Counted from the stretch's first letter, positions 18,636-41,864 are shown. The stretch: DNA of 57,126 bases from Candidatus Thorarchaeota archaeon (GCA_046758445.1 JBHIAE010000018.1:1-57126), one strand, 5' to 3'. Numbers and translations: made by a program. Notes: generated by a model from the sequence alone, not told the origin.

Positions 18636-18650
18636 CTTCTTCGACACGTA

Positions 18651-24654: not shown

Positions 24655-25878
24655 TTACCCGTAGATCTCATCCAAGCCGTCCCATGTGTAGCCAAGCGCC
24701 TCAGCTACTAGTACTGCGAGGTCCTTCACGACCTTGCTTGAGCCTGCTTGAGGGAGCTGGTCTCTCATGAAGTCAACGCAGGACGGGCATGCTGTTGCAA
24801 CGAGGTGCGCGTTTGTCTGCTCGATATCCTGTACCTTGAGCTCGTTTATCTGCATGGCAAAGTGGGAGTCGACTGGACGCAATACTCCTCCGGAACCACA
24901 GCAGAACGAGTTGTTCCTGTTGTGGGGTAGTTCCTCAAACTCAATGCCTGGCAGACTCTCGAGCACCTTCCTTGGCTGCTCGTAGAAGCCTGCATTTCGG
25001 CCAGCATCACAGCCATCATGAAATGTCACCGGCGTATCAATGGACTTTGTGAACTCCAGTCTACCTTCATCAATCAGCTCTTCAAAGAACTCTGGACCAT
25101 AGAGAATCTCGAATGGTGGGTCGATCTCAAGAAACTCGTGGTACTCATGGGCCCACATTTTGTAACAACCGGGACAGTTGGTGACTACTCTCTCAACACC
25201 AAGCTCTTCGTATTTCTCGATGTTGTGTTCAGCGAATTGGCGAGCTGTAGAGAAGTCGCCAGTCATGATCATGGGTGCTCCACAACACCATTCATCCTCT
25301 CCTAAGAGGGTGTAAGACTCGCCGGCCTTATCCATGATTAGAGTCGTTGCAATGGTTGCCTGGATCGAAGATCCTCTAAACGAGGATGTACACCCAACGA
25401 AGAAGGCAGTCTTTGCTTTCTGCCCCATCGTGTCAAGGAGTGCGTCCTCATCGGGGTGCCAGTAGGACCAACCTTCAATTCTGTCCATCTGAGATTGGCC
25501 GAGAATATTGAAGCTCTTGAGCAGAGTGTCCTTGGCCATTTGAAGCGGCTCTGGCCACAATCCTCGCTTCAAGAAGTCTGCTCGTAGAAGCTGGTAGACT
25601 TTCACAAATGGAATGTCAACTTGGCATATCTCTTCGCAACCACCACACAGAGTGCAACCAAAGACCGCGTTTCTCAGTCCTTCGAGTCCTTCACTGGCCT
25701 TAAGCCGGCCTTGCATCAAGGTCCGGGCTATCACCATTTTGCCCTTTCCTGAATAGCTGTCCCTGCGTTTCACCTTGTAGGTCGGACACGCACCATTCCC
25801 TACTTGACAGAAGCTACATTGGGCGCAAGTATAGGGCATTTCTTGTAGTCCATGCATCTCGAGACTCTCGAATCTCAT
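24655..25878 (-). CDS. HdrD/GlpC-type CCG Fe-S protein (no adjacent FAD partner)
   Basis: CAQCSFC......CP, CTLCGGCEEIC, FVGC, CCGAP, CPGC, FHDGC, CCGSGG, ACPSC. Start trimmed to ATG 25878. Confidence 0.9.
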   Translation of the reverse strand: MRFESLEMHGLQEMPYTCAQCSFCQVGNGACPTYKVKRRDSYSGKGKMVIARTLMQGRLKASEGLEGLRNAVFGCTLCGGCEEICQVDIPFVKVYQLLRADFLKRGLWPEPLQMAKDTLLKSFNILGQSQMDRIEGWSYWHPDEDALLDTMGQKAKTAFFVGCTSSFRGSSIQATIATTLIMDKAGESYTLLGEDEWCCGAPMIMTGDFSTARQFAEHNIEKYEELGVERVVTNCPGCYKMWAHEYHEFLEIDPPFEILYGPEFFEELIDEGRLEFTKSIDTPVTFHDGCDAGRNAGFYEQPRKVLESLPGIEFEELPHNRNNSFCCGSGGVLRPVDSHFAMQINELKVQDIEQTNAHLVATACPSCVDFMRDQLPQAGSSKVVKDLAVLVAEALGYTWDGLDEIYG

Positions 25879-26001
25879 GCTATCTTGCCTCAGAGGTGGT
25901 TCCAACGAGCGAGCTTGTCCGATGCAAACAAGCACTAATACTTTTGCTCTTGTCCGTTATTTCGAAGCAGTTGTCCGTCCGGCTGACTGATGCTATCACA
26001 C

Positions 26002-28314
26002 TCATTCTTCTCTTCGTCTGATTGCTTCAAACACCACGACGATTACGATCACAGACCCTGTCCAGGACAGAGCAATCGTCAGAATGGAACTCACGACGTA
26101 GTCGGGACCCGTGATTGGTCCTGGAGTCGTTGTGCCGGTTGTGGTAGTCGTCGTCGTGGTCGTAGTACTCGTTGTGGTTGTGGTGCCAGTTGTTGAAGCT
26201 GAAACAATCACATCAACTTGGTCAGATGCGCTGTTGCTTCCCACGTCAGTGACAAGTAAAGTGTAATTGTGCGTTCCTAGAGAGAGTCCATCTACATTTA
26301 GTGTGATGGTTTCCGATGTGTCATTCCAAGATCCTGATGCGATGACTTGAGCGTCGATGAAGACAACGTAGGAAGAAGGATGCAAGTCCGAAGGATTCCA
26401 AGTGATTGAGTTGCCCGTTTGCCCCTCGTTATACGAAACATCGAGAGGACTGTCCAAAACTGAAGGTGTTCCGTCGACCACTGTGACAAACACAGTGTCA
26501 CTGACTGAATTGGATCCCACATCATAGACGATCGATGTAAAGTTGTAGATGCCTAGGATCAGTCCATCCAATGAAACTGAGATTGTTTCTAGACTCGAGT
26601 TCCACGCGCCCGAACGAACGGGCGAACCATCCCTATAGATGATGTAGCTACTTGGATTGAGATCAGAAGGGTTCCAGCTGATTGTGCTCGAGGTTGTGCC
26701 CTCATCGAGAACGACATCAGTAGGACTGTCAATCGTAGGCGCCGTACCATCGTAGACATCCACCCAAACGGTGTCGACAGCGGTATTGGATCCAACGTCG
26801 GCAACCTCGATGGTGTAGTTGTAGGAGCCAAGTCCAAGGCCATCAACAGAAATCGATATGGTTTCGGAAGTGTCATTCCAGAGTCCGCTCTTTACAGGTG
26901 TGCCATCTCTGTAGATGACATAGCTTGATGGATGTGCATCTGCAGGGTCCCACGTAATTGAGTATCCAGTGTTTCCTTCTGCATAGGTAACGTTGGACGG
27001 GCTGTCAACTGTTGGCGGCGTGGCATCGTATAAAATCACCAAGACCATATCGCTCGCAGAGTTGCCGCCCACGTCCGCAACCTCGACTGTGAAGTTGTAT
27101 GTGCCGACTGACAGACCGTCGACTGAAACTGTGATGGTTTCTGAGCTGGAGTTCCATGCTCCTGACTTGTAAGGTGATTCCTCCATGTATACGACATAGC
27201 TGGAAGGATGGAGGTCGGAGGGGTTCCATGAGATACTGTTTCCAGTCTGTCCTTCGTTGTACTCAACATCTGCGGGACTATCAACAGTCGGTGCCGTGCC
27301 ATCAGACACTGTGACCCAGACCGTATCAGTAGCAGTGTTTGAGCCAACATCTGTGACCAGGATTGTGTAGTTGTATGTGCCCAGGGAAAGACCATCTACA
27401 GTCACTGAGATGGTTTCCAATGTATCGTTCCAGGTTCCAGATTTGATTGGGGTGCCATCTCTGTAGAGAACATAGCTCGAAGGGTGTAGATCTGTGGGGT
27501 CCCACACAATCGAGTTTCCAGTAGTCCCCTCACTATATGGAACGTCACTAGGGCTGTCAAGTACAGGTGCAGTACCATCGTAGACGCTAACATCAACCTC
27601 GTCGGTAGCGCTATTGCTCGCATCATCCCAGACAATGAGAGTCAGGTTATGGAAACCAAGCGTGAGTGTGCCAAGCGTCACCGAGATTGGTGAACCATCC
27701 CAAGTACCGCTCTGCCAAGACACCCCATTGTCGAATACCTCGTAGCTGTTGGGATTTGCATCGGCAGGATTCCATGTCACACTGGCAGTAGCGTTCTCTT
27801 CTGAAATGGTCTGGTCTAGGGGGCTATCTATCGTGGGGGGAGTTGTGTCGGATGATGTTACGGATACTGATATGTCCAAGGCCTTGGACAGATCTCCCTT
27901 CCCAGCAGTATAGATACGAATTGTCCACGATCCCACGGATTGCGGCGTGAATGAGAGTGAAGCCCTCACTTCATCTGTCGTCGGGTTTAGGTCCGAGCCG
28001 CTACCATCCATTACCTCTGTTGGAGTGAATGAGAACTGATTGTTGTCAGCCCAACCTGCTTGAACGCTGATAGCAACCTTGTTGTCACCCCGAGAATAGC
28101 CTGTCGAATCAACAATAAGCGTAAACGGTTTCCCCGTGACTGCGTTTACCGTACCTGTAGCATTGGAAGTGAGTATGAGGACGTTTGTGGTAGTGTGACA
28201 GATTCCACACTCTGAGGTTTCGCCTGAGTGCGCCAGTGCCAGGCTTGCTCCGGCAAATAGAACCACACAGACGATCAGGGAGAGTGCTATACCGTGTTTC
28301 TGTGTCGACCTCAC
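26002..28314 (-). CDS. Cell-surface monoheme c-type cytochrome with six tandem Ig-like repeats and C-terminal TM anchor
   Basis: Signal peptide, CGICH, beta domain homologous to 11344..11934, six ~90-92-aa repeats, poly-Thr linker, TM helix plus RRR. Confidence 0.8.
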   Translation of the reverse strand: MRSTQKHGIALSLIVCVVLFAGASLALAHSGETSECGICHTTTNVLILTSNATGTVNAVTGKPFTLIVDSTGYSRGDNKVAISVQAGWADNNQFSFTPTEVMDGSGSDLNPTTDEVRASLSFTPQSVGSWTIRIYTAGKGDLSKALDISVSVTSSDTTPPTIDSPLDQTISEENATASVTWNPADANPNSYEVFDNGVSWQSGTWDGSPISVTLGTLTLGFHNLTLIVWDDASNSATDEVDVSVYDGTAPVLDSPSDVPYSEGTTGNSIVWDPTDLHPSSYVLYRDGTPIKSGTWNDTLETISVTVDGLSLGTYNYTILVTDVGSNTATDTVWVTVSDGTAPTVDSPADVEYNEGQTGNSISWNPSDLHPSSYVVYMEESPYKSGAWNSSSETITVSVDGLSVGTYNFTVEVADVGGNSASDMVLVILYDATPPTVDSPSNVTYAEGNTGYSITWDPADAHPSSYVIYRDGTPVKSGLWNDTSETISISVDGLGLGSYNYTIEVADVGSNTAVDTVWVDVYDGTAPTIDSPTDVVLDEGTTSSTISWNPSDLNPSSYIIYRDGSPVRSGAWNSSLETISVSLDGLILGIYNFTSIVYDVGSNSVSDTVFVTVVDGTPSVLDSPLDVSYNEGQTGNSITWNPSDLHPSSYVVFIDAQVIASGSWNDTSETITLNVDGLSLGTHNYTLLVTDVGSNSASDQVDVIVSASTTGTTTTTSTTTTTTTTTTGTTTPGPITGPDYVVSSILTIALSWTGSVIVIVVVFEAIRRREE
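26200..27849 (-). repeat. Six intragenic tandem repeats of ~270-276 nt (Ig-like domains)
   Basis: Consensus D.T.P..DSP.DV.Y.EG.TG.SI.W.P.D.HPSSY..Y.DG....SG.WN...ETI...VDGL..G.YN.T..V.DVGSN...D.V.V occurs six times. Confidence 0.9.
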
Positions 28315-28570
28315 GAGTCATCATCCCTTGAACTTGTAAGACTGACCAGGTGACGCATCCAAAGATGCGGCATGTTGCTTCTGGTCACGAGATGGGCCCG
28401 AAAACTTTCAACTATCAAATGCTCTGATTCTGTGTTTCATCTGGCCAACATTGGGAGCCGGAGCCGAAGCTGGCATCTCTGCTGTTTCAGACTGCTCGTT
28501 AGGTTTTTATGGCGCCCGCGTCCGACCCTGACTCGAAACCCGTCCCGTTCTCTTACTTGGTGAGAGTCAA

Positions 28571-30511
28571 ATGACCTTGAAACAGAAGCTTGTTGAACAA
28601 CTCAAAGAGGTCTTCGAGGACCGAGTCGTCACTGAGAAGCATGAGCTTGTTATACATGCTATGGATGTGGGCTCTCTCCCGAAGCAGGTCGGGTGGCTGA
28701 TGAATCCAAACCCTGATGCTATGGTGCAGCCACTGAAACCTGAGGAGGTGAGATTCCTCTACGAGTTTGCAAACAAGCACAAGATCCCATTGGTTCCAAG
28801 AGGCGCAGGTACTTCTGGATATGGGGGCGCCATTCCCCGCAAGGGGGGAATTGTAGTTGACATGCGCGGCATGGACCAGATCATCGACATCGATGAGGAT
28901 AACTTTACCGTCACTGTTGAGCCGGGCCTCTCATGGGCGAACCTGCAGTTTGAACTCAACCGCAAGAACCTCGACCTTCGGTGCTATCCGTCGTCTGGTC
29001 TCTCAGCCACGATAGGTGGATGGGTTGCGCAAGGAGGCGACGGGATTGGCTCTCTCAAGTATGGCACCATTAACGAGAATGTTGTAGAGTTCGAGGTCGT
29101 GTTGCCCACAGGGAAGATCGTCAAGAGCAAGGACACCGATTTGTTCTGCGACACCGAGGGCATCCTTGGAATCATCACGAAAGTCAAGTTGAAGATAAAG
29201 CCACTCACGCCAATCAAGGTGATAGTTTCAAGCTTCGCTGAAAACTATCAGATGGTGCATGCAATCGAGAAGATCATTGAGGACGGTCCCTTGCCATTCA
29301 CTGTCAAGTTCGAGGAGTCGAAATACACGGACCTGAAGAAGCAGATATGGGAGAGCGAAGAGAAGTTCCCATTCCCGGTTCACCATGGCACAATCATGGT
29401 GGCATATGATGGGCCCGAGGAGGAGGCCGAGGAGGGCTTCAGGGTAGTAGAAGAAGCCACCGAGATGTACAGGGGCACTGTTTATGACGAGCACGTAGCC
29501 GAGCACGAATGGCACGACAGATACTACCCGATGAGGATAAAGAAGGCTGGCCCTACTCTTGTGGTTGGCCAAGCTTTTGCCCCGTTGGAGAATCTCGCTG
29601 CCATGCTAGATGACTGGCAGTTCGAGCAAGCCTCCGCGCGTGCAGGACTAGATGGCTATGTGAACTCGAAGAACGCGATCACTTGTATGGCCTATTTCCT
29701 CGAGGATGAGCGACGACGCTTCTTCATGCTCTCCTGGTCTCAGAGCTTTGTAGTCTTCAAGATTGCACAGCGGCATGGAGGTCATGCTCACTCGACTGGA
29801 ATCTGGTTTGCCAATCAAGCCACCCAGTACTTTGGCAAGGAACGGCTTTCGCGTATTCGTGGTGCGAAGCTTAAGTTTGACCCCAAAGAGATTTCCAATC
29901 CTGGAAAGGTCTTTGCCTACTGGCTGCCGTTGATACTAAGATTTGCAAAGTACTTCTTGTGGATATTCTACGACTTGTTCAGAAATGGCCTCGGTCGAAT
30001 CGCACCCATTCTCTTGAAGTGGCTGCAGAACTTGCCGCCGCTGAAGTGGATGCTTCGTTGGGGCAGGGCACATAGCCCTTGGCCAGTGCAGTATGGTCTA
30101 GGATGCTGTATGGTAGACGGTGCAGCAGGAATCGCATCTAGATGGGACTTCGAGAGATTCGGGATGCTACCGTTGTTCGGTCCAAGGCAGTGTGATGTTC
30201 TTTGGATTTCCGGGTCACTCACAAAAAAGATGGCACCTCGATTGCGCAGGGTCTATGAGATGATGCCCGATCCAAAGTTTGTCATAGCCTTTGGACAGTG
30301 CGCTGCATCTGGCGGACTGTTTTGGGACGGCTACTCATTGCAGGTCCCACCCGAAACTGTCGTGCCTGTAGATGTCTATCTGCCCGGTTGTCCACCCAAG
30401 CCTTCGGACTTCGTTCGCGCACACATAATCCTGCAAAACAAGATCAGAGCCGGCACCACTCATTGGCAGATGAAATATGAGAACCAGGATGCCATGGGGA
30501 TGATACAGTGA
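28571..30511 (+). CDS. nuoB: Fusion of GlcD-fold FAD oxidoreductase (N-terminal ~450 aa) and complex I NuoB subunit (C-terminal)
   Basis: PRGAGTSGYGG, YPSS...TIGGWVAQGG and NPGKVF, then an amphipathic linker and GLGCC..., RWDFERFG, PRQCDVL..SG..T.KMAPRLRRVYE.MPDPKFVIA.G.CA.SGG, PVDVYLPGCPP, all in one open frame. Confidence 0.9.
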   Translation: MTLKQKLVEQLKEVFEDRVVTEKHELVIHAMDVGSLPKQVGWLMNPNPDAMVQPLKPEEVRFLYEFANKHKIPLVPRGAGTSGYGGAIPRKGGIVVDMRGMDQIIDIDEDNFTVTVEPGLSWANLQFELNRKNLDLRCYPSSGLSATIGGWVAQGGDGIGSLKYGTINENVVEFEVVLPTGKIVKSKDTDLFCDTEGILGIITKVKLKIKPLTPIKVIVSSFAENYQMVHAIEKIIEDGPLPFTVKFEESKYTDLKKQIWESEEKFPFPVHHGTIMVAYDGPEEEAEEGFRVVEEATEMYRGTVYDEHVAEHEWHDRYYPMRIKKAGPTLVVGQAFAPLENLAAMLDDWQFEQASARAGLDGYVNSKNAITCMAYFLEDERRRFFMLSWSQSFVVFKIAQRHGGHAHSTGIWFANQATQYFGKERLSRIRGAKLKFDPKEISNPGKVFAYWLPLILRFAKYFLWIFYDLFRNGLGRIAPILLKWLQNLPPLKWMLRWGRAHSPWPVQYGLGCCMVDGAAGIASRWDFERFGMLPLFGPRQCDVLWISGSLTKKMAPRLRRVYEMMPDPKFVIAFGQCAASGGLFWDGYSLQVPPETVVPVDVYLPGCPPKPSDFVRAHIILQNKIRAGTTHWQMKYENQDAMGMIQ

Positions 30512-31059
30512 AACTGAGAGAAGACAGCACTTCGTATTGTCTGATGTGGTTCGGTGTGTTGATGCTAAGCGCTTATGCGTTCAGTCTGTTTCTCCAGACA
30601 CAGGCACAACCCTTGATGGCAGTCCATCTGTTGCCTTTGGTGGGTGGGCCACTCATCCTTGTCTTCTTTCTAGTGGGGTACTTCAGACCAGCCAGAGGTC
30701 GAATAAAGGTGAACATGCTGGCCATGTCTATTGTCGTGGGAGTGCTCTACACAATCTATGTTACAATACTCCTGAGTGACCTTGGAGGTGACCTCTATCT
30801 AGCCTCTTGGGGCATGGGAGGAGCCATTCTTGTTGCAGGAGGGATTTCAATTGTGCCTCCATACGAAGAGAGTGTGACGCCAGGCATTATGGACCTCAGC
30901 GCACTACATTATGGTCCTGAGCCTGAACCAGAGGCTGAGCCTGAACCCGAAGCCGAACCAGAAACGGGAAAAGAACCTAGCGTAACTCCCGACTCTACTG
31001 AGTCACCTGAACCGGCACCTGACTCCAAGGAAGAAACTCCGACTGGTGAGGGAGAATAG
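30508..31059 (+). CDS. Four-TM membrane protein with Pro/Glu-rich tail
   Basis: GTGA overlap with the nuoB-fusion stop; four TM helices; PEPEPEAEPEPEAEPE tail; paralogous to 31191..31553. Confidence 0.75.
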   Translation: MKLREDSTSYCLMWFGVLMLSAYAFSLFLQTQAQPLMAVHLLPLVGGPLILVFFLVGYFRPARGRIKVNMLAMSIVVGVLYTIYVTILLSDLGGDLYLASWGMGGAILVAGGISIVPPYEESVTPGIMDLSALHYGPEPEPEAEPEPEAEPETGKEPSVTPDSTESPEPAPDSKEETPTGEGE

Positions 31060-31190: not shown

Positions 31191-31553
31191 TCACTCGCGA
31201 AGCCAGCTAAAAGCGGCATAAGCAAGAAGGAGTCCGAAGGCCAACCATGCGAATAGAAGAATTCCAGCCAGGTCGGTGTACTGGGTTATATCCAAGTATC
31301 CATGCACGCCGGCAAAGATTCCCGATAGCATTGTGAGACCAATCCGTCCGCTGCGCGTGTTCGCATAGGCGATACCTAGGGTCGATACCACCAAGAGCAC
31401 ACCGCTCATGAAGATGACGTACTGGTACGACGGATCTATCGGGGCCACCGTTAAAATGATCCAGAGGTATGAACCGATAAGAGTCATCCCAATCAGTAGT
31501 GCCAGGTAATAGAAGAACGTACCCTCTTCCTTGTAACTCAATTGAATCACCAA
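31191..31553 (-). CDS. Four-TM membrane protein
   Basis: Four hydrophobic helices; shares GRI..(N/T)ML and DL.G.L...W motifs with 30508..31059; possible start TTG 31544. Confidence 0.75.
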   Translation of the reverse strand: MVIQLSYKEEGTFFYYLALLIGMTLIGSYLWIILTVAPIDPSYQYVIFMSGVLLVVSTLGIAYANTRSGRIGLTMLSGIFAGVHGYLDITQYTDLAGILLFAWLAFGLLLAYAAFSWLRE

Positions 31554-31893: not shown

Positions 31894-32340
31894 TTGAGGC
31901 TTTTCATCGATTTCATCCCCGTGATAGTATGGGCTTTGCTTGCAATAGTCCTAGTAGTCGTGATGCTTCTTGCCTCATGGGTACTGCGTCCACATATCCT
32001 ACAGAACTCTGAGAAGACGTCGACGTATGAATGCGGTGAAGAGCCAATTGGCCCAGCAAGGATGACATTTCCATATAGCTATATTATCTACACCATTCTA
32101 TTCCTAGTCGTTGATGTTATGGGTGCGTTCCTTTGGCTACTGTCAGCATCCCCACTCAGGCTTGATCCCATAGTTGCTTGGCAGACGTTCATTTTCGTTG
32201 TTCTGATTATGGGGGGAATCGGCTTTGCGGTGAGGTTCATCCCGCAGACGTCACTTGACGGAAGAGAAATGGTGACTGCGTATCGCGCGGCCAAGGCCAG
32301 AGCCCTGGCCAAATCAGACAAGTCAGGGAGGACTCACTAG
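31894..32340 (+). CDS. nuoA: Complex I-like subunit A
   Basis: K.STYECGEEP, three TM helices, FLVVDV; TTG start after GGAGG. Confidence 0.9.
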   Translation: MRLFIDFIPVIVWALLAIVLVVVMLLASWVLRPHILQNSEKTSTYECGEEPIGPARMTFPYSYIIYTILFLVVDVMGAFLWLLSASPLRLDPIVAWQTFIFVVLIMGGIGFAVRFIPQTSLDGREMVTAYRAAKARALAKSDKSGRTH

Positions 32341-32990
32341 TGCAAGGCTTCGAGGCATTGTTTGAGCAAGTGGAGTTCTTGCTGATTGCAGGAGTTGTCA
32401 TTGTACTGGCTTATCTCGCCTTGGAGCACCGAGAGATAGTCTATGCCGCCTTCTTCTTTGGAATCATGGCGTCATTTGTTGCTGGATTCTTCCTGCTTCT
32501 AGAGGCACCTTTCATTGCTGGGATGCAGATCGCTGTATATACAGGTGGTATCAGTGCTCTCATTATCTTCGCGGTTCTCCTTTTGCCCAGGGCACAGGAC
32601 GCAACGTTGGAGGCTTTTGCATCACCACGGGCGAAGAGAATGGGCCTCATCCTGTCAGCCACCATAGCCTTCCTCTCAGCCCTTCTAGCCCTAATCTTCC
32701 CATGGAGTGAGTCTTTTCCTGTATCTCGTGTAACGGAATCGCAAGACCTAGGTCTCTTGGCGGATTGGCTCTGGGGCGAGCACGGAATCTATGTTCAGAT
32801 GATTGCGCTGATCATCATCACGGCTCTAGTGGGGGCGATTGCACTGATGAAGATGGACAAGGCCGAGCTCATTGGTGACATCGTTGGTGAGTTTGGTGTG
32901 GAAGCCATGCCAAGTCCGGGTGAACCAACCGATGAGCAAGAAGAGCCAGAGGAACCTGTGTCTGCCAGCGAGGAGGTGGACGACGAATGA
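32340..32990 (+). CDS. nuoJ: Complex I-like subunit J
   Basis: L.APFIA.MQI.VYTGGI..LI.FAV.L motif; five TM helices. Confidence 0.88.
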   Translation: MQGFEALFEQVEFLLIAGVVIVLAYLALEHREIVYAAFFFGIMASFVAGFFLLLEAPFIAGMQIAVYTGGISALIIFAVLLLPRAQDATLEAFASPRAKRMGLILSATIAFLSALLALIFPWSESFPVSRVTESQDLGLLADWLWGEHGIYVQMIALIIITALVGAIALMKMDKAELIGDIVGEFGVEAMPSPGEPTDEQEEPEEPVSASEEVDDE

Positions 32991-33307
32991 TCCCACTCTC
33001 CTGGTATCTTGCAGTAGGTTTCATCCTAATTGGACTAGGTGCCTACGGAATGATGGTCAAGAGGAACCTCATCAGGATTCTCATCGGAGCAGAGATCATG
33101 GCTAACGGAGTCATGATTGCCCTGGTTGCACTAGGTCTCTATGGCCCTGTATTTGCACTAACTGGACAGGGCTTGGTCATTCTCGTGATATCAGTTGCAG
33201 CCGCACACACTGCATTGGCTATGGTCTTGATGCTTGTTTACAACAGACGTTACGGCACTGTCGATTTCGGAACGCCAATCTCGCAGGAGGAGAAGATCAA
33301 TGTCTAG
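32987..33307 (+). CDS. nuoK: Complex I-like subunit K
   Basis: G..G...KRNLI..LI..EIM.NG, GQ......VAAA; three TM helices. Confidence 0.9.
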   Translation: MIPLSWYLAVGFILIGLGAYGMMVKRNLIRILIGAEIMANGVMIALVALGLYGPVFALTGQGLVILVISVAAAHTALAMVLMLVYNRRYGTVDFGTPISQEEKINV

Positions 33308-33827
33308 AGAAAGACCGGTTTCAGGCTCCTCCGTTGGTAGGCAGTTAGTAAACAAGATACCCGGCGTCGAATGCGAGGTCAAGGATGGCAATGTTGTGGA
33401 ATGCGTTGTCCCAGCGGACAAGATACGTGACGTTGTTTCCCTTATTGACGAGTCAGTTCCGCTTGTCTTTCCCGAATCCGTATTTGGCGTAGACCTCACT
33501 GAAGACAAGTATGAGGTCATCTACATATTCTGGGACAGAACCACTAGTACTCTGTACCAGCTTCGTGTTCCATTGGAGGGTCCGAATCCAGCTGTGGACA
33601 GTGTCTGTGACATATTCCCTGGTCTCGAGTGGTACGAGAGAGAAACCTGGGAGATGTTTGGTATAGGCTTCAGTAATCATCCTGATCTTAGGCTCCTATT
33701 ACTCCCTGATGAGCTGGAGGGAAAGTATCCACTTCGCAAGAGCTTCGAAACCGACAGATCTCGACTCAGTGAAACTGGAATCGCACCACCGCGACCACGG
33801 TCAAAGACTGGAGGCGAATCTCAATGA
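33300..33827 (+). CDS. nuoC: Complex I-like subunit C
   Basis: DSV..IFPG.EWYERETWEMFGI.F..HPDLR.LLLP......PLRK; start ATG 33300. Confidence 0.9.
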   Translation: MSRERPVSGSSVGRQLVNKIPGVECEVKDGNVVECVVPADKIRDVVSLIDESVPLVFPESVFGVDLTEDKYEVIYIFWDRTTSTLYQLRVPLEGPNPAVDSVCDIFPGLEWYERETWEMFGIGFSNHPDLRLLLLPDELEGKYPLRKSFETDRSRLSETGIAPPRPRSKTGGESQ

Positions 33828-34960
33828 CGCCTGACATCCTCGATGAAATCACTGAGATCTGGTTTGGACCTCAGCACGTGTCAGCCCATGGATGGGCTGC
33901 AAAGCTCACTCTCGTTGGCGACTATGTGGTCGAATGTGATCCAAATGCGGGGTACTTTCATAGGTCTGCAGAAAAGTGTCTTGAGTTCCGTAACTTCCGG
34001 CAAGGGGCAATGATTATGGAGCGACTGTGCTTGCTGGAAGCGTTTCTCGCAGAGTATCCCTACATTGCCGCTGTTGAGAAGATTGCGGACGTTGAGGTGC
34101 CAGAGAGAGCTAAGGTCATGCGAACCATAATGATGGAGGCTAGTAGAATCCATTCACTCCAGTTCTGGTGGGGTCAGTTCTCTGCCGAGCTCGGGCTGTT
34201 TGCTATGCTCCTGTGGCCATGGGTTGACCGTGAATTCTTCCTAGACACCTTTGAAGAGCTTTCGGGCTCCAGACATGCAGTATCCTACAGCACACCTGGC
34301 GGAGTCAAGTACGACTTCAACGAGAAAGTGCTGACCAAGCTTGATATTGCCCTTGCGCGATTCGAGGAACGAATGCCCAAGATGCGCGATATGTTGATGG
34401 GTAGCCCGGCATTTCGAGTACGTACAGAAGGAATTGGACAGTTCACGCTGAAGCAGGGCCTCAAGATGGGTCTTAGTGGTCCCCCTATCAAAGCATGCGG
34501 ATACCCGATGGACCTGCGGAAAGATTCCCCGGACTCTAACTTGGCCTACAACCTGGCTGACTGGGAGGTTCCGACAGTTGAGAGTTCTGAGCACCCTGGA
34601 GAAAGTGACGCGTACGACAGAATGGTGCAGAGATTCAAAGAAATGGAAACATCCGTCGAGATAATTCGACAGCTACTGCCACAAGTTCCAGATGGCCCAT
34701 TTGTCGATCCAAAAGCGCGTGCCAAGACCAACAGACTCCCGGAGGGAGAGGCATACGGACGTGTGGAGGGTACTAGGGGAATCTCAACAGTATGGCTGAA
34801 GACGACCGAGAAGGCGCAGACTCCCTATAGAGCCAAGATACGCGGACCGTGCTTCAACTCCTACTATTCACTCAAACATCTTGTTCCGAGTTCGAAGTTC
34901 GCCGACTTCATTGCGATATTTGGGTCACTCGACCCGTACCCAGGATGGTGGGATCGATGA
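33824..34960 (+). CDS. nuoD: Complex I-like subunit D (NiFe ligands mostly absent)
   Basis: GPQH...HG, GYFHRSAEK, VPERA..MRT...E..RI.S, PGGV..D, EG.RG, PYR.KIR.P, GSLD......DR. Confidence 0.88.
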   Translation: MTPDILDEITEIWFGPQHVSAHGWAAKLTLVGDYVVECDPNAGYFHRSAEKCLEFRNFRQGAMIMERLCLLEAFLAEYPYIAAVEKIADVEVPERAKVMRTIMMEASRIHSLQFWWGQFSAELGLFAMLLWPWVDREFFLDTFEELSGSRHAVSYSTPGGVKYDFNEKVLTKLDIALARFEERMPKMRDMLMGSPAFRVRTEGIGQFTLKQGLKMGLSGPPIKACGYPMDLRKDSPDSNLAYNLADWEVPTVESSEHPGESDAYDRMVQRFKEMETSVEIIRQLLPQVPDGPFVDPKARAKTNRLPEGEAYGRVEGTRGISTVWLKTTEKAQTPYRAKIRGPCFNSYYSLKHLVPSSKFADFIAIFGSLDPYPGWWDR

Positions 34961-36108
34961 CGGGAGGTGTATTGTTGCAGGTAGACTTTTTTGCGTGGCT
35001 TCAGGGACTGCCAAGCTGGATTTACGGCATCATCCAGTGGCTCTTCTACCTGGTCACCAACATCTTCTACTGGGTATGGGGAGTGTTCACATGGGTATGG
35101 GCAGCCATATTCGACCCGGCCAACTTCTTCTTCCTCATCAGGGCTATTCTTTTCCCTGGTCTTGTCTTCATTGTCTTGACCCTAATCTATACGGTCTGGT
35201 GGACTCGAAAGCTCTGGGGTCGTATCCAGGACAGAAGAGGTCCGTTCCATGTAGGTAAGTACGGAGGCCTACAGCTATTCGCTGACGCCATCAAGTTAGT
35301 GGCCAAGGAAACCATTATCCCAGACAATGCGAAGCGATGGATGTACAGGCTCTTGCCTTCACTACTGCTTGTCATCGTGTTGCTTCCATTTGCCTTCATC
35401 CCTTGGGACCCAATTTGGTACATTGCCGACCTGTCAGTGAGTCTTGTGCTCATCTTCGCATTCTTGACCGCAGTACCCGTAATCGCGCTACTATCTGGAT
35501 GGATCAGCGGATCCAAGTACACACTGATAGGAGGATTCCGAGCAGCCAGCAATCAGTTTGCATGTGAGATTCCGCTCATCATTTCAACTATTGGACCAGC
35601 ATTGTTGGCCGGATCGTTAAGTGTGATGGGGATCGTGCAGGCCCAAGCAAATGTATGGTACATCCTCTTGCTCCCAATCAATGTGGCAACGTTCCTAGTG
35701 GCTTCAATAGCATCGGTGGGAACCTTCCCCTTTGACGCTCCAGTGGCGGACTCGGAGATTATCTTCGGGTGGAGAACCGAATTCTCCGGAATCTACTTCA
35801 CTATGACGTACTTCGCAGAGTTCGCTGAGCAGATGCTGTATTCTGCTCTCATCGTAACATTCTTTCTAGGCGGGTTCCAAGGACCTGACTTCTTGCCAGG
35901 CAGTGTCATCTTCATCATCAAGTTTCTGATAGTGTTCTTCTTCTTCGTAGTTGTGACCTCGTCTTTCCATCGGTTGAGGATGGACCAGATCGTACGTTAT
36001 TGCTGGAAGTACTTGTTGCCGCTATCAATGCTTAATGTTGTACTAGTCTTGCTGGCCATCGCTCACTTCCCATGGCTAGCTGCGCTGCTTGCACTCGGAG
36101 GTGGCTAG
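34957..36108 (+). CDS. nuoH: Complex I-like subunit H
   Basis: RK..GRIQDRRGP, G.LQ.FADA.KL..KE, SKY.LIGGFR, PFD.P.ADSE...G..TEFSG, R.RMDQ....CWK.L.P; start ATG 34957 or a nearby TTG. Confidence 0.9.
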   Translation: MTGGVLLQVDFFAWLQGLPSWIYGIIQWLFYLVTNIFYWVWGVFTWVWAAIFDPANFFFLIRAILFPGLVFIVLTLIYTVWWTRKLWGRIQDRRGPFHVGKYGGLQLFADAIKLVAKETIIPDNAKRWMYRLLPSLLLVIVLLPFAFIPWDPIWYIADLSVSLVLIFAFLTAVPVIALLSGWISGSKYTLIGGFRAASNQFACEIPLIISTIGPALLAGSLSVMGIVQAQANVWYILLLPINVATFLVASIASVGTFPFDAPVADSEIIFGWRTEFSGIYFTMTYFAEFAEQMLYSALIVTFFLGGFQGPDFLPGSVIFIIKFLIVFFFFVVVTSSFHRLRMDQIVRYCWKYLLPLSMLNVVLVLLAIAHFPWLAALLALGGG

Positions 36109-36112
36109 AGAA

Positions 36113-36544
36113 ATGGGAATTCTCAGAAACTTAGGCGACATGTTCCAAATCCTGAGGCACGTCTTCCGTCAGGTCTTCACTAGGCCCTTCACGTACTTCT
36201 ACCCGTTCGAGGACCGTGAGTACCCGGAAACGACCAGGGGCAGACACATACACATTCGCAAGAACTGTACAGCGTGCTCACAATGCGTAAGAGCATGTCC
36301 TGTAGTGGCGATCAGAATTGACAAGGAGGACAAGATGTACGAGAAGGATGCAGCGCTGTACTTTGATTACACTCGATGCATCTTTTGTGGCTTATGTGTC
36401 CAATCATGCAGGTTTGACGCACTGTTCCACACAGCGGTGGTTGATATCAGTGAGGGCGAGAGGGAGGACCTACTGTACGGTCCGGATAAGATAGAAACCC
36501 TCGACAGGGACCCACTGAAGTGGCGTGGGAGGGAGTTCAGGTAA
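36113..36544 (+). CDS. nuoI: Complex I-like subunit I (2x[4Fe-4S])
   Basis: T..YP.E.......RG, CTACSQCVRACP, RCIFCGLCVQSC; start ATG 36113. Confidence 0.9.
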   Translation: MGILRNLGDMFQILRHVFRQVFTRPFTYFYPFEDREYPETTRGRHIHIRKNCTACSQCVRACPVVAIRIDKEDKMYEKDAALYFDYTRCIFCGLCVQSCRFDALFHTAVVDISEGEREDLLYGPDKIETLDRDPLKWRGREFR

Positions 36545-38058
36545 TGCAGGCAATCGAGTTCCCATTCATGGCCATATCACTGGCCGTCCTTTTTCTTGGA
36601 GGGCTGTTGATCTACCTGTTTCGCGGAAGATTAGTGGAATCGTCAGGAAGGGTTGCCGTAGGCATCTCATTCGCGTCGCTTGTCCTGATGATTCCACCGT
36701 TCTATCGCGTACTTGTGGAACCGATTGGTGCTGTATTCGAGGGTGCCACGTGGTCGGAAGTGCTGGGAGAGTTCGGACTCTACATGGATGGAATAGCTTT
36801 CCCAATCACTTTCGCCGTCGTTGTACTAGGTTTCCTCTCAGTCGTTTACGCTGTGGGTTACACTGAGCACTCGGAGAACAAGCCGACGTTCTTTGCAAAC
36901 ACGCTGTTCTTCATAATGGGTATGCAATGGGTAACTCTCGCCACGAATCTACTCGAGTTCTTCATTGCATGGGAATTGATGCTGGTTCCGTCATACTTCT
37001 TAATTCTCTTCTGGGGTCTTCCTGAAACGAAAAAGAGGACCGCCATGAAGTTCTGGTTGTACACACAGTCAGGGGCCGTGTGCATCCTCATCGGATTTGG
37101 ACTGCTGTACTTCTTCACTGGCTCTTTTGAGCTCTACACAATCATCTCGTTACTGCCCGCATTCATTAGCCAACTAGATATGCTGAAACTGATCTTCATT
37201 CTGCTGGCCGCGGGATTCCTAGTCAAGATGGCCGTCTTCCCAATTCACTGGTGGCTTCCTCCTGTCCACGCTGAGGCACCAACACCAATCTCAGTGCTGC
37301 TATCTGGAGCTATGATTGAGACCGGCGCTTACGCTCTGGTCCGGTTCGGAATCGTCACCCTGGGCCCTGCAGCTTTGAACTTGTCATTCTTCGTTGGTCT
37401 TCTCGGTGTCATTACCATGTTCTATGGTGGACTAATGGCGCTTGTTCAGAAGGACATCAAGAGACTCCTTGCTTATTCAAGTGTGAGCCAGATGGGCTAC
37501 GTACTCTTTGCATTAGGAATGATAACCTCTTACGGAGTTGCAGGTGGACTGTTCCATCTCATCAATCACGCATTCTCAAAGGGCCTCTTGTTCATGACGG
37601 CAGGAGCTGTGATCCATCAGACTCATCTCCGCGATGTTGACCTCATGGGAGGTCTCTCGAACAAGATGCCCATAACCGCCTTTGCTGCCGCGATAGGCGC
37701 AATGAGCATAGCGGCAAGTCCACCGCTGTCGGGCTTCGCAAGTGAGTGGATGATGTTCCTTGGAGGATTTGATGCGGTGTTCCTTGGAACTCCTGGAATG
37801 CGACCCGAGTTCCTTATCCTCTCAATCCTCGCTGTGTCCTCTTCAATTGTAAGCGCGGGATACATGCTTCGCTATATCTGGAAGGTCTTCCTTGGGCCTC
37901 ATCCGGACGCGCTTGAAGAAGTGAAGGAGAGCTCCCGATGGATGACTGTCCCAATGATCATTCTCGGGGTTCTGATTGTGCTCTTCGGAATACTCCCAGG
38001 ACTGGCACTTGATGTGATCATACCTGGTGTACAAGGAATTCCATCGATTATCCCATGA
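36544..38058 (+). CDS. nuoM: Antiporter-like subunit, additional NuoM/MrpD-like copy
   Basis: FFIAWELM..P.YF, A.KF.LYT, VK...P.H.WLP..H.EAP, Q.DIKRLLAYSSVSQMG, NHAFSKG, GF.SE; start ATG 36544. Confidence 0.8.
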   Translation: MQAIEFPFMAISLAVLFLGGLLIYLFRGRLVESSGRVAVGISFASLVLMIPPFYRVLVEPIGAVFEGATWSEVLGEFGLYMDGIAFPITFAVVVLGFLSVVYAVGYTEHSENKPTFFANTLFFIMGMQWVTLATNLLEFFIAWELMLVPSYFLILFWGLPETKKRTAMKFWLYTQSGAVCILIGFGLLYFFTGSFELYTIISLLPAFISQLDMLKLIFILLAAGFLVKMAVFPIHWWLPPVHAEAPTPISVLLSGAMIETGAYALVRFGIVTLGPAALNLSFFVGLLGVITMFYGGLMALVQKDIKRLLAYSSVSQMGYVLFALGMITSYGVAGGLFHLINHAFSKGLLFMTAGAVIHQTHLRDVDLMGGLSNKMPITAFAAAIGAMSIAASPPLSGFASEWMMFLGGFDAVFLGTPGMRPEFLILSILAVSSSIVSAGYMLRYIWKVFLGPHPDALEEVKESSRWMTVPMIILGVLIVLFGILPGLALDVIIPGVQGIPSIIP

Positions 38059-38068
38059 GGTGAATTAG

Positions 38069-40318
38069 ATGCTGCTTGGACTACCATATTGGCTTATCCT
38101 CGTAATTCCACTCGGCGGTTCACTGCTCGTTCCATTAGCTGGGCGCTTCAGCGAGAGGATGAGAGATTGGACTCCTGCAATCCTCATGGGCATAACTATG
38201 GTTCTGAGCTGGTCTCTTCTTCTGGAGATTGGGAATCCAGAAACCCAGACGAGCTGGACTTGGATCGCAGTACTTGGACTCAACTTTGAGATCCTTCTTG
38301 ACCCGTTGTCAGTCGTTATGGCCGTCCTCGCGAGTACACTGTGTTTCCTCATCTATGTGTACAGTACTGAGTACATGGCTCACGAGGGTGACCGTGACAG
38401 GTTTTTCTTCCTGATGTTAGCGTTCGGGGGCGGAATGCTCACACTTGTTCTCAGCAACAACCTGCTCATTGCGTTCATCGGTTGGGAGATAATGGGCTTC
38501 TGCTCCTACGGGCTCATCGGCTTTTGGAGCGATAGGAGGAACCCGATGGAGGTTGAGCTTGACCCGATTGTTTACAAGAACCCCCTTCTTCAGTTCGAAA
38601 CTGAGGGCCAGTACAACACTCATTGCGGGACCAAGGCCTTCGTTGTGACAAGAATCGGTGATGCATTCATGCTCGGGGGCATTCTAATTCTCTTTGTCTT
38701 CACTGGCACGTTCTCTTTCACAGAGATGGCCACCAATGCACAGGGATGGTGGCAGGTCATGGCCAGCATCGGATTGCTGGTGCCGACTTTCTTGCTGATT
38801 TTTCTCGGTGCAATTGGGAAGTCGGGTCAGGCACCACTGCAGGTTTGGCTCCCTGAAGCAATGGCTGGTCCTACGTCGGTTTCAGCGCTTATTCATGCAG
38901 CAACAATGGTGAAGGCCGGCGTTTACATTACTGCAAGGTTTCTTGTCACTATGGTTGAAGCCGCAGGAAGCAATGGCAATAGTGGAGGTCATGTCTATTC
39001 TACACTCCAAGCGGTCGGCTTTGAGGCTGCCCTTTCGTTCTTCATAGTGGTAGCAGTCATCGGAGGTATCACGGCCCTTATGACAGCAACGATGGGAATG
39101 GTTTCGAACGAGCTTAAGCAGATTCTCGCATTCTCGACTCTGTCCCAGCTTGGCTACATGATGCTGGCATTGGGCACTGGTGGGATTCTTGAGGCCAATA
39201 ATCTTCACTTCGATTATGCTTACCTGAGCAGCATACTTCATGTGGTTTCACACGGCGCATTCAAGGCACTCCTGTTCTTGGCGTCAGGTGGTGTGATACA
39301 TGCTTTACACACGAAGTATATCTCCAAAATGGGAGGACTTCGAAAACACATGCGAAAGACGTTCACAATCATGTGGATAGGCATTCTAGCTCTAGCCGGG
39401 ATTCCGCCGTTTTCAGGATTCTGGTCCAAGGATTCCATCATCGAATACACCTACGAGCTGGCCGTTCATTGGACCAATCCACTCGGATGGATTCTGTTCG
39501 TGTTTGCTGTTCTGGCCGCAGCATGCACCATCTTCTACAGCCTTCGATTGATGGGTATCACCTTCTATGGACCACCGAAGGAAACGCACGATTCCCACGA
39601 TAGTCAAGAATCACATGAAGAAGAGTCTGAAGAGCATGTGGAATCAGAGGAGGAGCATCATGACGATCACCATTCTGACCCCCACGACCCGGGTCCAGCT
39701 ATGATGGTTCCTCTCTACCTCTTGGCCGCATTCACAATCATAGCATTCGTGGTGTTTCCGTTCATCCAGAACATCGTGCTAGAATCCAGTCAAAGCTGGG
39801 CTGAGATCATGAATGAGATGATCATGGTCAAGCTAACTATGCCTGGAGTAGTACCATTCGCCATCACTCTGTTTGCCCTCGCAATTGGAGGTATCCCAGG
39901 CTACATAATCTACATCAGGAACGCAGACCGGAAGAACACAATCATCCCTGAGACTGGCTTCAGACGTCGAATCCACAACTTCCTCAAGCACCGGTGGTAC
40001 ATCAACGAGTTCTACTACTGGGTCCTGAACAAGTTCCTCAATGCCGCTGAGTGGTACAGAGTCAGGGTTGACAACAACATCATAGATGGAATCGACTTCA
40101 AGTCTGCAGATTCGGCGAAAGCCATATCTGGGAGGGCTCGTTGGTTTGACGACAACGTGGTAGACGGGTTTGCGGAAGGTATCTCCACACAGAGTGTCGC
40201 AGGATCTGAGAGAGGTCAGCGCGCTCAGACTGGAGTGGTGAATGACTACGTTGGAGTCATAATGTTCGGAATTGGGCTGCTGGTGATTATTGCCCTAATC
40301 ACAATGGGGGTGATATAG
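38069..40318 (+). CDS. nuoL: Complex I-like subunit L
   Basis: GWEIMGFCSYGLIGFW, KAF..TRIGD, GKSGQ.PL..WLP.AM.GPT.VSALIHAATMV, LAFSTLSQLGYM, HGAFKALLFL, GFWSKD, QTG.V..Y. Confidence 0.92.
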   Translation: MLLGLPYWLILVIPLGGSLLVPLAGRFSERMRDWTPAILMGITMVLSWSLLLEIGNPETQTSWTWIAVLGLNFEILLDPLSVVMAVLASTLCFLIYVYSTEYMAHEGDRDRFFFLMLAFGGGMLTLVLSNNLLIAFIGWEIMGFCSYGLIGFWSDRRNPMEVELDPIVYKNPLLQFETEGQYNTHCGTKAFVVTRIGDAFMLGGILILFVFTGTFSFTEMATNAQGWWQVMASIGLLVPTFLLIFLGAIGKSGQAPLQVWLPEAMAGPTSVSALIHAATMVKAGVYITARFLVTMVEAAGSNGNSGGHVYSTLQAVGFEAALSFFIVVAVIGGITALMTATMGMVSNELKQILAFSTLSQLGYMMLALGTGGILEANNLHFDYAYLSSILHVVSHGAFKALLFLASGGVIHALHTKYISKMGGLRKHMRKTFTIMWIGILALAGIPPFSGFWSKDSIIEYTYELAVHWTNPLGWILFVFAVLAAACTIFYSLRLMGITFYGPPKETHDSHDSQESHEEESEEHVESEEEHHDDHHSDPHDPGPAMMVPLYLLAAFTIIAFVVFPFIQNIVLESSQSWAEIMNEMIMVKLTMPGVVPFAITLFALAIGGIPGYIIYIRNADRKNTIIPETGFRRRIHNFLKHRWYINEFYYWVLNKFLNAAEWYRVRVDNNIIDGIDFKSADSAKAISGRARWFDDNVVDGFAEGISTQSVAGSERGQRAQTGVVNDYVGVIMFGIGLLVIIALITMGVI

Positions 40319-40319
40319 A

Positions 40320-41864
40320 ATGCAGTTCAATTTTATCGATAACTTGATCGCAATGCTGCCAATGGAATACATACTGCCCGTTATGCTGTTTCTACCAGTA
40401 TTGGGAGCATTCATCGCCTACCCCTTAGGCAAGAGGGGTGCGCGAGCACTCACTCTGTTGATCACGGCATTCGAGCTAGTTCTTGCGATTCTCTTGGCTT
40501 TTGCAATCGACACTTCGACCGATGCAATGTCATACTCTTGGAGATTTGTGATGGGCACAATCCCCTTTGGAGGTGCATCGGCGAACCTGCAGATACTCCT
40601 CGGAGTCGATGGGATATCCGTGGCCATGATATTCCTATCGAACTTGGTTGTCTTTGTAGCCGCTCTTAACTCGAACCACATCCACAAGTCTGAAGGGCTC
40701 TACTATGCCTTCTTCCTTCTCCAGGCAACAGGTCTGCTGGGGGTCTTTATGTCACTAGACTTGATCAGCTTCTTCATTTTCTGGGAGCTTGTCCTGATTC
40801 CCTTGTTCTTCATAATAGGTCGCTGGGGCGAGGAAGGCTGCGAACACGCGGCTGTGAAGTTCTTCATCTATACTCACCTAGGCTCTGCAGTGATGCTTGT
40901 AAGCTTCATGGCACTCTACTTCCTTGGACCTGGTACGTTTGAGATGGTTGCCCTTCGCGAAGTTGGACTCCCTGTGGATGTTCAGATAGGATTTGCTTTG
41001 GCTGTCTTCATGGGAGCAGGAGTTAAGCTGCCAGTCTTCCCGCTTCACAACTGGCTACCTTGGGCTCACGTGAAAGCACCAACGCCTGGCTCGGTCATTC
41101 TTGCGGGAATCCTGTTGAAGATGGGCGGGTACGGGTTCATCAGGCTAGGCCTATGGATGGTGCCTGAGGGCTTCATGCATCTCAGTATCCCACTTGCAGT
41201 GCTGGCTGTCTTTACTTGTATCTACGCAGCGTTTGTTGCACTCGCACAAACGGACCTCAAGAGCATGGTGGCTTATACTTCGATCAACCACATGGCATGG
41301 GTACTGCTGGGAGTTGCTATCGGCGCGTTTGCTTTCCAGGCCGGCGTCACCCCTGACATCAGAGCGGCCGCAAGTCTTGCAGTTCAGGGAGCTGTCTTCA
41401 TGATGGTGTCACATGGGGTGATAATATCAGTGATGTTCATCATGGCCGGTCAGCTTACCTACGCGGCTGGTTCAAGGGAGATTCCTGAAGTCCAGGGTCT
41501 CATGGCAAAGGCCCCAAGATTGTCAGCGGTCCTCATTTTGGCATCCTTTGCAGCCTTCGGCCTTCCCGGTTTCAGCGGTTTCATTGCAGAAGCTTTGGTC
41601 CTCTTTGGGTCTGTCAGTATCTACATCTGGTCAGGATTGATAGCGTTCGGGATCTTTGTCACGGTCGGTTATCTTCTATGGACACTAAACCGAATCGTAT
41701 TCAGTGACCCGGACCCTGAGAAAGAGGTTGTAGATGCTCCTTGGAGTGACCTCATCGCGCCCATACTGATGATGGTCCCTGTGCTTGTGCTTGGATTCTG
41801 GCCTGACCTGATCCTCAATATGGTGACTCCGGTGGTCAACTTCATGCTTGGAGGTGTCCCATAG
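40320..41864 (+). CDS. nuoM: Complex I-like subunit M
   Basis: GVDGIS, FFIFWEL.LIP.F, A.KFFIYT, VKLP.FPLH.WLP.AH..AP..GS.ILAG.LLKMG.YG, D.K..VAY.S..HM, MVSHG, GLPG.SGF.AE. Confidence 0.92.
   Translation: MQFNFIDNLIAMLPMEYILPVMLFLPVLGAFIAYPLGKRGARALTLLITAFELVLAILLAFAIDTSTDAMSYSWRFVMGTIPFGGASANLQILLGVDGISVAMIFLSNLVVFVAALNSNHIHKSEGLYYAFFLLQATGLLGVFMSLDLISFFIFWELVLIPLFFIIGRWGEEGCEHAAVKFFIYTHLGSAVMLVSFMALYFLGPGTFEMVALREVGLPVDVQIGFALAVFMGAGVKLPVFPLHNWLPWAHVKAPTPGSVILAGILLKMGGYGFIRLGLWMVPEGFMHLSIPLAVLAVFTCIYAAFVALAQTDLKSMVAYTSINHMAWVLLGVAIGAFAFQAGVTPDIRAAASLAVQGAVFMMVSHGVIISVMFIMAGQLTYAAGSREIPEVQGLMAKAPRLSAVLILASFAAFGLPGFSGFIAEALVLFGSVSIYIWSGLIAFGIFVTVGYLLWTLNRIVFSDPDPEKEVVDAPWSDLIAPILMMVPVLVLGFWPDLILNMVTPVVNFMLGGVP

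Follow-up and report, generated by a model that had tools for sequence, protein, structure and literature searches.

The contig analysed here comes from a Candidatus Thorarchaeota archaeon (GCA_046758445.1 JBHIAE010000018.1:1-57126; the whole stretch of 57,126 nt is called the window below) and carries, at 28571..30511 on the plus strand, a gene whose product joins a flavoprotein to the complex I subunit NuoB. As delimited by its open reading frame, its translation and its Pfam and NCBIfam domains, the protein has 646 amino acids (aa) and consists of four parts in a single uninterrupted frame. These are a flavin adenine dinucleotide (FAD)-binding domain of the FAD_binding_4 family (residues 48-185; 28712..29125, plus strand; Pfam E 1.5e-38), an FAD-oxidase_C cap or substrate domain (residues 216-447; 29216..29911, plus strand; Pfam E 2.3e-13), a 47-aa amphipathic tail or linker (residues 448-494; 29912..30052, plus strand), recognized by gapless alignment to an unfused relative and by its hydrophobic moment, and a complete NuoB (residues 495-646; 30053..30511, plus strand). 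The NuoB part matches Oxidored_q6 (residues 526-617; Pfam E 1.8e-23), passes the cut-offs of the NCBIfam models NF005012 and TIGR01957 over residues 493-630 (168.1 bits against 116 and 160.8 bits against 142.7), and among solved structures matches NdhK and Thermus Nqo6 with E ~1e-41. The ligands of cluster N2, C512, C513, C577 and C607 (motifs GCC, GQC and GCPP), are invariant in all 31 fused homologues compared, and column counts single out R77, G83-G86, S142, G149-W151 and G155-G156 as the conserved FAD-loop residues. The reading frame, both sets of domain models and the N2 cysteines thus agree with what a first-pass annotation of the DNA had described, a 646-aa frame joining an FAD oxidoreductase to a complete NuoB with the tandem-Cys N2 motif. 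The NuoB part is predicted to assemble with NuoD, NuoI and NuoH and to carry a reducible N2. In passing the family cut-offs, in its four N2 cysteines and in adjoining a nuoAJKCDHIMLMN gene set, it resembles NuoB/Nqo6/NdhK/PSST; known members of that family, however, are free-standing proteins of 150-260 aa or are fused to NuoC/D, whereas here a flavoprotein with its tail, 494 aa in all, precedes NuoB.

Distribution and reality of the fusion

In a word-indexed search, ~47 clusters at 90% identity share the three-domain architecture of ~646 aa; they are 72-89% identical and nearly all are labelled Thorarchaeota, and one comes from a closed 3.16-Mb Thorarchaeota chromosome. When 1.84 billion cluster representatives were scanned exhaustively with HMMER, just one cluster at 50% identity spanned both halves, the remaining matches covering the flavoprotein alone or NuoB alone. 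The search for combined FAD_binding_4 and Oxidored_q6 architectures proposed at the outset therefore leads to a single cluster from Thorarchaeia, where a high-identity NuoB (82-100%) lies within a frame of ~646-720 aa in 12 of the 17 genera sampled (81 species-level genomes). Only short NuoB-like matches were found in the other five genera (~40% identity in four, 46% in the fifth). Because the NuoD-like genes are only ~31% identical in the five genomes examined, from four of these five genera, the non-fused genera appear to carry a different, Mbh/Ech-like complex. Every copy of the nuo type described here has a fused NuoB in the genomes sampled. Free NuoB proteins with 63-65% identity to the fused domain occur on short metagenome contigs of unassigned taxon, either as nuoA-nuoB or alone, and the nearest named one, from Methanomethylicota, is 48% identical.

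That there is no functional fusion at all, the frame being an artefact of assembly or frameshift, or free NuoB being produced from an internal start, is extremely unlikely. In the source genome Met494 does stand exactly at the junction; of 31 homologues, however, just 6 have Met at position 494, the other 25 having Val, Leu or Ile, so that a conserved internal start is unlikely, and a free NuoB initiated at Met494 was rejected as a candidate product. Relatives had been named as the place where a stop or a frameshift between the domains should be sought; they carry the same continuous frame of ~646-720 aa, in dozens of species genomes that were assembled separately and include a closed one, which rules out an assembly artefact. 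Moreover, the 3.25-Mb, 92.7%-complete genome from which the window derives, and to which all genome-wide searches below refer, has no other Oxidored_q6 match, and its nuoD is the sole Complex1_49kDa gene. The fusion, previously reported as the only nuoB near nuoAJKCDHIMLMN, is therefore the only NuoB found anywhere in that genome.

The flavoprotein, its tail and its iron-sulfur partner

The fold of the flavoprotein is that of mouse LDHD and of LctD (Foldseek template modelling score 0.85, normalised to mLDHD). With LDHD (8jdb-8jdy), LctD (7qh2_C) and GlcD it shares the two-domain fold, the Pfam domains and a W-x-x-R motif, W314-x-x-R317, whose Arg aligns to R347, the residue of LDHD that binds the substrate carboxylate; W314 and R317 are invariant in the fusions, and position 317 is R or K elsewhere. 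It departs from these enzymes in lacking both their metal site and the GEHGIG motif, in falling below the glcD cut-off and in its C-terminal amphipathic tail. The residues of the His-His-Glu divalent-metal site found in lactate, glycolate and 2-hydroxyglutarate dehydrogenases (H398, H405 and E442 of mouse LDHD) are replaced by Y363, I370 and A406 (Val also occurs at 370 and Pro at 406), a mapping that is somewhat uncertain, the alignment being weak in this region, and across the subfamily the three positions hold Tyr/Phe/Trp, Val/Ala and Pro/Val/Ala. In place of the 'GEHGIG' of LDHD-type enzymes stands 'HxHSTGIW', the GHxGDGNxH motif was not found in any relative checked, and the glcD equivalog TIGR00387 reaches 147 bits against a cut-off of 568. 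AGPS is a strong structural match to the flavoprotein, and DprE1 a weak sequence-family match. The structural comparison and the Pfam domains thus uphold the GlcD fold noted in the first-pass annotation but, with no metal triad and an equivalog score below cut-off, not an enzyme of the GlcD/LDHD type. Lactate and glycolate were rejected as substrates because the His-His-Glu site is missing; some carboxylate seems plausible.

The segment between the catalytic domains and NuoB (residues 448-494) has many Leu, Trp, Arg and Phe residues. Its helical hydrophobic moment, 0.62-0.67, is the highest in the whole protein, hydrophobicity of transmembrane grade is never reached, and its mean pairwise identity is 80%, compared with 73-74% for the two catalytic domains. 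An unfused Thorarchaeota relative of 498 aa aligns with residues 1-494 of the fusion at 55% identity with zero gaps and terminates four residues past the motif PPLKW; more distant unfused relatives (34-42% identity) also have a hydrophobic or amphipathic C-terminal tail, following a conserved NPGK motif. From the other side, the nearest free NuoB proteins (60-65% identity) align to the fusion from the helix LxxxxxWGRxxSPWP onward. The junction is the start of the N-terminal helix of NuoB, which aligns with free NuoB and with Nqo6, 18 residues before the tandem N2 cysteines. Because unfused relatives carry the same tail and free NuoB aligns from the junction helix, these alignments identify the 'linker' as an ancestral C-terminal tail belonging to the flavoprotein itself, which runs straight into the N-terminal helix of NuoB. 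Residue content and hydrophobic moment fit the Trp/Leu/Arg-rich amphipathic linker described initially, but the segment is not a mere linker; to judge from its composition, it looks like a membrane-surface anchor rather than a docking domain.

The position of the join bears on where electrons could be exchanged. In published structures of complex I, the N-terminal helix of Nqo6/PSST lies at the NuoH/NuoA interface, on the membrane surface and at the carrier-cavity end of the peripheral arm, a long way from the NuoI site at which NuoEFG, FpoF or ferredoxin deliver electrons. The suggestion that the flavoprotein is an electron-input module docking near NuoI is not supported: its tail is attached to this helix, 18 residues from the N2 cysteines, which places the join on the membrane/quinone side.

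Nor does the flavoprotein seem to be a full, stand-alone FAD oxidoreductase, as had been assumed, for its subfamily works with an HdrD-like Fe-S/CCG protein, encoded divergently here (24655..25935, minus strand; likely start 25878, 407 aa; Pfam Fer4_8 and two CCG domains), and a model of the two together passed its controls. This predicted partner of the FAD domain combines a 2x[4Fe-4S] ferredoxin part with two CCG domains and is HdrD-, TfrB- or GlpC-like; its cluster cysteines are all invariant among nine relatives. No NCBIfam equivalog was found for it, for the FAD domain or for the relatives of the latter. Both genes lie on one contig in 45 Thorarchaeia genomes, and in every one of these the CCG orthologue and the fusion gene are divergently oriented, the gap being 166-362 bp in 33 of them and 2.3-9.6 kb in the other 12. 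In the genus with the unfused flavoprotein, a CCG gene encoding a 64%-identical protein lies directly upstream of it on the same strand, and a CCG gene follows that of a Thermoproteota relative. The FAD domain's next-closest relatives include many single-chain FAD + Fer4 + CCG oxidoreductases (900-1030 aa, 33-40% identity; Firmicutes, Chloroflexi and others), and one relative is fused to NrfD. Like the Thorarchaeia protein, the single-chain and NrfD-FAD forms are without the LDHD-type His motif and have an HdrD-like or quinone-interacting partner; in Thorarchaeia, in contrast, the CCG part is encoded separately and the flavoprotein is fused to NuoB.

Modelling of fusion residues 1-500 with the CCG protein gave a score of 0.86, compared with 0.01 for the best control; this mark is reached by 58 of 80 solved complexes and by 2 of 110 mismatched pairs, counts that are only approximate for the custom alignments used here. 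The three runs share at least 95% of their contacts, the partner having a predicted local distance difference test (pLDDT) value of at least 90. In the modelled interface, residues 79-81 and 142-145 of the flavin loops face the CCG protein at its first Fe-S motif, as expected for a chain from FAD through [4Fe-4S] to CCG clusters. The model thus supports binding of the FAD domain to the HdrD-like protein.

The same observations bear on the idea that the flavoprotein part is a structural, assembly or regulatory appendage of NuoB that stays outside the electron chain. Plant L-galactono-1,4-lactone dehydrogenase (GLDH) is held by non-covalent contacts on the membrane arm of an assembly intermediate of complex I and passes no electrons into complex I. 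GLDH (7a24 chain z) is, like the protein described here, a flavoenzyme of the VAO family on complex I, is a distant sequence match to it, and offers a precedent for a VAO-fold protein that does not feed the Fe-S chain. The missing His-His-Glu site would also fit an appendage, but that site is absent throughout the subfamily and was not lost on fusion; furthermore, fused and unfused members alike show little or no variation in the FAD loops and the W-x-x-R motif, and the Fe-S partner gene is kept beside the fusion wherever both could be placed on one contig. We therefore give this idea very little credence.

The complex I homologue and the genes around it

The genes nuoA-J-K-C-D-H-I-M-L-M-N (31894-43372) begin 1.4 kb downstream of the fusion and have the same arrangement in the closed Thorarchaeota genome. 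All on the plus strand, they comprise nuoA (31894..32340; Oxidored_q4), nuoJ and nuoK (32340..33307; Oxidored_q3 and Oxidored_q2), nuoC and nuoD (33234..34960; Complex1_30kDa and Complex1_49kDa), nuoH and nuoI (34849..36544; NADHdh and a Fer4 dicluster domain) and four antiporter-like subunits in the order nuoM-nuoL-nuoM-nuoN (36520..43372; Proton_antipo_M in all four, Proton_antipo_N in the second). The fusion gene itself lies outside the operon proper, split off from it by a gene on the opposite strand. By its predicted subunits, the pump is a head-less complex I homologue of the '2M' type, with two NuoM-like genes flanking nuoL.

No nuoEFG or fpoF gene was found in the window and no FrhB/FpoF-type domain in the genome. 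The lack of an input module noted at the start holds for the window and, as regards FpoF, genome-wide, but not for NuoEFG, since contig C33 (locus L005 7780-14786) carries nuoE-, nuoF- and nuoG-like genes followed by nfnA/nfnB-like genes. The NuoF-like protein encoded there has two extra ferredoxin motifs and thioredoxin-like parts, and the NuoG/formate-dehydrogenase-like protein has a molybdopterin domain. Because of the extra ferredoxin and thioredoxin-like parts of NuoF and of the NfnAB-like neighbours, we judge this cluster unlikely to be the missing head of the pump; it is probably a soluble enzyme of the bifurcating type. In keeping with this, Appler et al. model Asgard NuoEFG homologues as separate bifurcating-type complexes. 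The fused part described here is, like NuoEFG and FpoF, a flavoprotein of a complex I homologue, but it differs from them in its fold, in using FAD rather than flavin mononucleotide, and in being placed at the N-terminus of NuoB rather than at the top of the peripheral arm.

At the position of the RLDY motif of complex I NuoD, hydrogenases carry RxCxxC. The NuoD of the window (33824-34960, plus strand) has ERLCLLE there, an R-x-C-x-x-E pattern shared with MbsL, and MbsL of the Pyrococcus sulfane reductase MBS is also its best full-length match among solved structures (6u8y_L, E 1.5e-52), marginally above 49-kDa subunits; the His of the GPQH...HG loop is retained. Because the Tyr of RLDY is missing and the best solved match is MbsL, a canonical quinone site in this NuoD appears doubtful, and the acceptor at the N2 site uncertain.

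Three genes stand immediately around the fusion. Between it and the CCG gene, on the minus strand (26002..28314), is the gene for a 770-aa surface protein with an N-terminal CxxCH, six Ig/PKD-like repeats, a Thr-rich stalk and a C-terminal anchor, which is inserted there in this lineage only and is probably not part of the module. Overlapping the stop codon of the fusion is the start of a gene (30508..31059, plus strand) for a 183-aa membrane protein of no Pfam family, with a long acidic, Pro/Glu-rich tail; it has a 37%-identical orthologue at the same position in the closed genome and is a candidate extra subunit. A conserved membrane protein of 120 aa and no known family, with a 67%-identical orthologue at the same place in the closed genome, is encoded on the minus strand (31191..31553) and separates the fusion gene from nuoA. 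Further along the window (43769-44410, minus strand) is a gene for a small Ras/Rab-like GTPase. Such GTPases are typical of Asgard archaea, and the gene is consistent with the assignment of the homologues to Thorarchaeota.

Upstream of the fusion the window holds an island (7897-21534 and 24655-30511) in which the pairing of an FAD_binding_4 protein with an Fe-S/CCG protein recurs four times as paralogues: 7897-9639 with 9640-10815, 12190-13863 with 13911-15110, 19897-21534 with 18651-19922, and the fusion with 24655-25935. Part of the island is syntenic in the closed Thorarchaeota genome. Among the pairs are genes for an amine-oxidase-like flavoprotein (15155-16531), for a PNPOx-like domain fused to a UbiA-family prenyltransferase (16876-18414, minus strand), for a free PNPOx protein (22797-23282, minus strand) and for a DUF7530-PNPOx membrane protein (23286-24548, minus strand), the last two both syntenic with the fusion in the closed genome. 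Four UbiA-family prenyltransferase genes score above cut-off in the genome, which also has one UbiD. The genus with the unfused FAD gene is without a complex I-type operon; in its genome (L007 15923-19906) a soluble-type NiFe hydrogenase cluster, made up of an Fe-S protein, an FAD/NAD-binding protein and the small and large subunits, lies 4 kb from the CCG-FAD pair.

Some of these neighbours suggest that the flavin/CCG module acts in the synthesis, modification or repair of a membrane isoprenoid, for example a lipophilic carrier, and is placed at the pump for that purpose. The unfused CCG-FAD pair comes after genes for UbiA, polyprenyl synthase and geranylgeranyl reductase; the closest non-Thorarchaeota relative has UbiD, a 4HBT thioesterase and a CDP-alcohol transferase among its flanking genes; the PNPOx-UbiA fusion and the two further PNPOx proteins, two of the three syntenic in the closed genome, stand among the pairs of the window; and the VAO fold includes AGPS, which acts on lipids, and DprE1, the former a strong match and the latter a weak one. 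This support, however, is drawn from gene neighbourhood, which differs between loci, and the conserved W-x-x-R matches the carboxylate-binding Arg of LDHD. The four paralogous FAD/CCG pairs of the island, moreover, look more like dehydrogenases with different substrates. A role in isoprenoid chemistry is thus, in our view, improbable.

How the module and the pump may be coupled

Our preferred reading, to which we give a probability of about 0.5, is that a membrane-surface FAD/HdrD-like enzyme is tethered to the head-less pump at its carrier end, and that electrons pass between the two through a lipophilic carrier or at the mouth of the cavity. Fusion of the C-terminal amphipathic tail of the flavoprotein to the N-terminal helix of NuoB would permanently attach to the four-antiporter pump an enzyme composed of the GlcD/LDHD-fold flavoprotein and the HdrD-like 2x[4Fe-4S]/2xCCG protein. 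The flavin/CCG module would thereby sit on the membrane surface beside the NuoB/NuoH/NuoA interface, at the opening of the carrier cavity, and there a substrate, probably a carboxylate, would be oxidised or reduced through FAD, the 2x[4Fe-4S] part and the CCG clusters. Module and pump would exchange electrons by way of a lipophilic carrier, in or close to the carrier site and not at NuoI. The pump itself would most likely be fed by ferredoxin at NuoI, or would reduce ferredoxin when the ion gradient drives it backwards. Possibly, then, the tether serves to couple a mid-potential dehydrogenase with a ferredoxin-linked ion pump over a short range. Of the first-pass proposals, that of a dehydrogenase tethered beside the quinone site comes close to this reading.

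Several observations weigh against a tethered enzyme that uses a carrier. The lipophilic carrier on which it depends has no known menaquinone route, as no MqnA/D domain, no MenB above cut-off and no NrfD were found in the genome, and NuoD, whose best solved match is MbsL, is without the quinone-ligating Tyr motif. Because no Mqn/Men pathway was found, an unrecognised prenylated carrier might be the product of the PNPOx/UbiA genes. A complex model may also be passed by close paralogues, and the window has three FAD/CCG pairs besides the one modelled. The geometry of the module receives no support from the AlphaFold2 single-chain model (47-row alignment; predicted template modelling score 0.70), in which the FAD domain is well folded and NuoB is poor (pLDDT 30-60). 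Finally, either direction of electron flow is compatible with the data.

The reading that competes most directly with the carrier-linked tether dispenses with a free carrier and has the flavin/HdrD-type module wired directly to N2, or to the clusters of NuoI, as a covalent Fpo-HdrD(/GlcD). It would make the complex an ion-pumping ferredoxin:X oxidoreductase, X being a disulfide or a flavin substrate such as an organic acid, or the reverse X:ferredoxin machine. There are proposals of this kind for other archaea: a head-less Fpo-like complex is assumed to contact HdrD directly in Methanomassiliicoccales (PMC7374477), and for Bathyarchaeia, Methanomethylicia and Korarchaeia a unit of HdrD/GlcD associated with Fpo has been put forward (PMC10667645, PMC6783470). 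The Thorarchaeia system resembles them in its 11-subunit, head-less complex I homologue with HdrD-like CCG and GlcD-like proteins encoded next to it, but there the association was inferred from gene content, whereas the GlcD-like protein and the FpoB/NuoB homologue of Thorarchaeia form one covalent chain; a further difference is that MCR was not found here and that there are four antiporter-like subunits. Besides the physical joining and the conserved adjacency of the HdrD-like partner, direct wiring is favoured by the failure to find a canonical quinone pathway in the genome, by the NuoD without its quinone-site Tyr, by the 18 residues that separate the junction from the N2 ligands and by the Methanomethylicota origin of the nearest named free NuoB. 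In solved complex I, however, N2 lies deep in the NuoB/NuoD interface, with NuoI as its sole electron supplier, and no model obtained here gives a second route to it. The FAD/CCG subfamily is, moreover, widespread without a Nuo or Fpo partner and is in one case fused to NrfD, which fits chemistry at the level of a carrier, and the tail has the look of an anchor to the membrane surface. Because the MCR alpha domain was not found in the genome, CoM-S-S-CoB is not expected as substrate or acceptor. On this evidence we regard direct wiring as the less probable reading, and continue to favour the enzyme tethered at the carrier end.

As far as we could find, a complex I homologue with a covalently attached redox module of this kind is previously undescribed. 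The fusion proteins are present in public databases, annotated simply as NuoB, and a literature search on Thorarchaeota and Asgard archaea found no paper describing a fusion of FAD flavoprotein and NuoB, in line with the initial statement that no fusion of NuoB to this flavoprotein family had been described; the portions available of Asgard papers on complex I or on Thorarchaeia do not mention it.

Complex I homologues are thought to have diversified by exchanging modules at the top of the peripheral arm, where NuoEFG, FpoF or ferredoxin-binding sites are found. Here a different redox enzyme is attached at the opposite end, beside N2 and the carrier cavity, and has been kept across a class of Asgard archaea. 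To our knowledge, the combination of a head-less Fpo-like complex with HdrD and GlcD has been proposed for several archaeal groups since 2015 without physical evidence; a natural fusion of a GlcD-like gene with nuoB is evidence of the Rosetta-stone type that such modules sit on the pump. Three genes and one operon thus form a defined target for cryo-electron microscopy and biochemistry. Were direct wiring to prove true, the complex would represent a new class of energy-converting enzyme operating with no free quinone, and the fusion would be the first physical evidence for Fpo-HdrD/GlcD complexes. In any event, the finding bears on energy conservation in Thorarchaeia, which has been inferred from genomes only, and on which kinds of chemistry can be coupled to ion pumping by the complex I scaffold.

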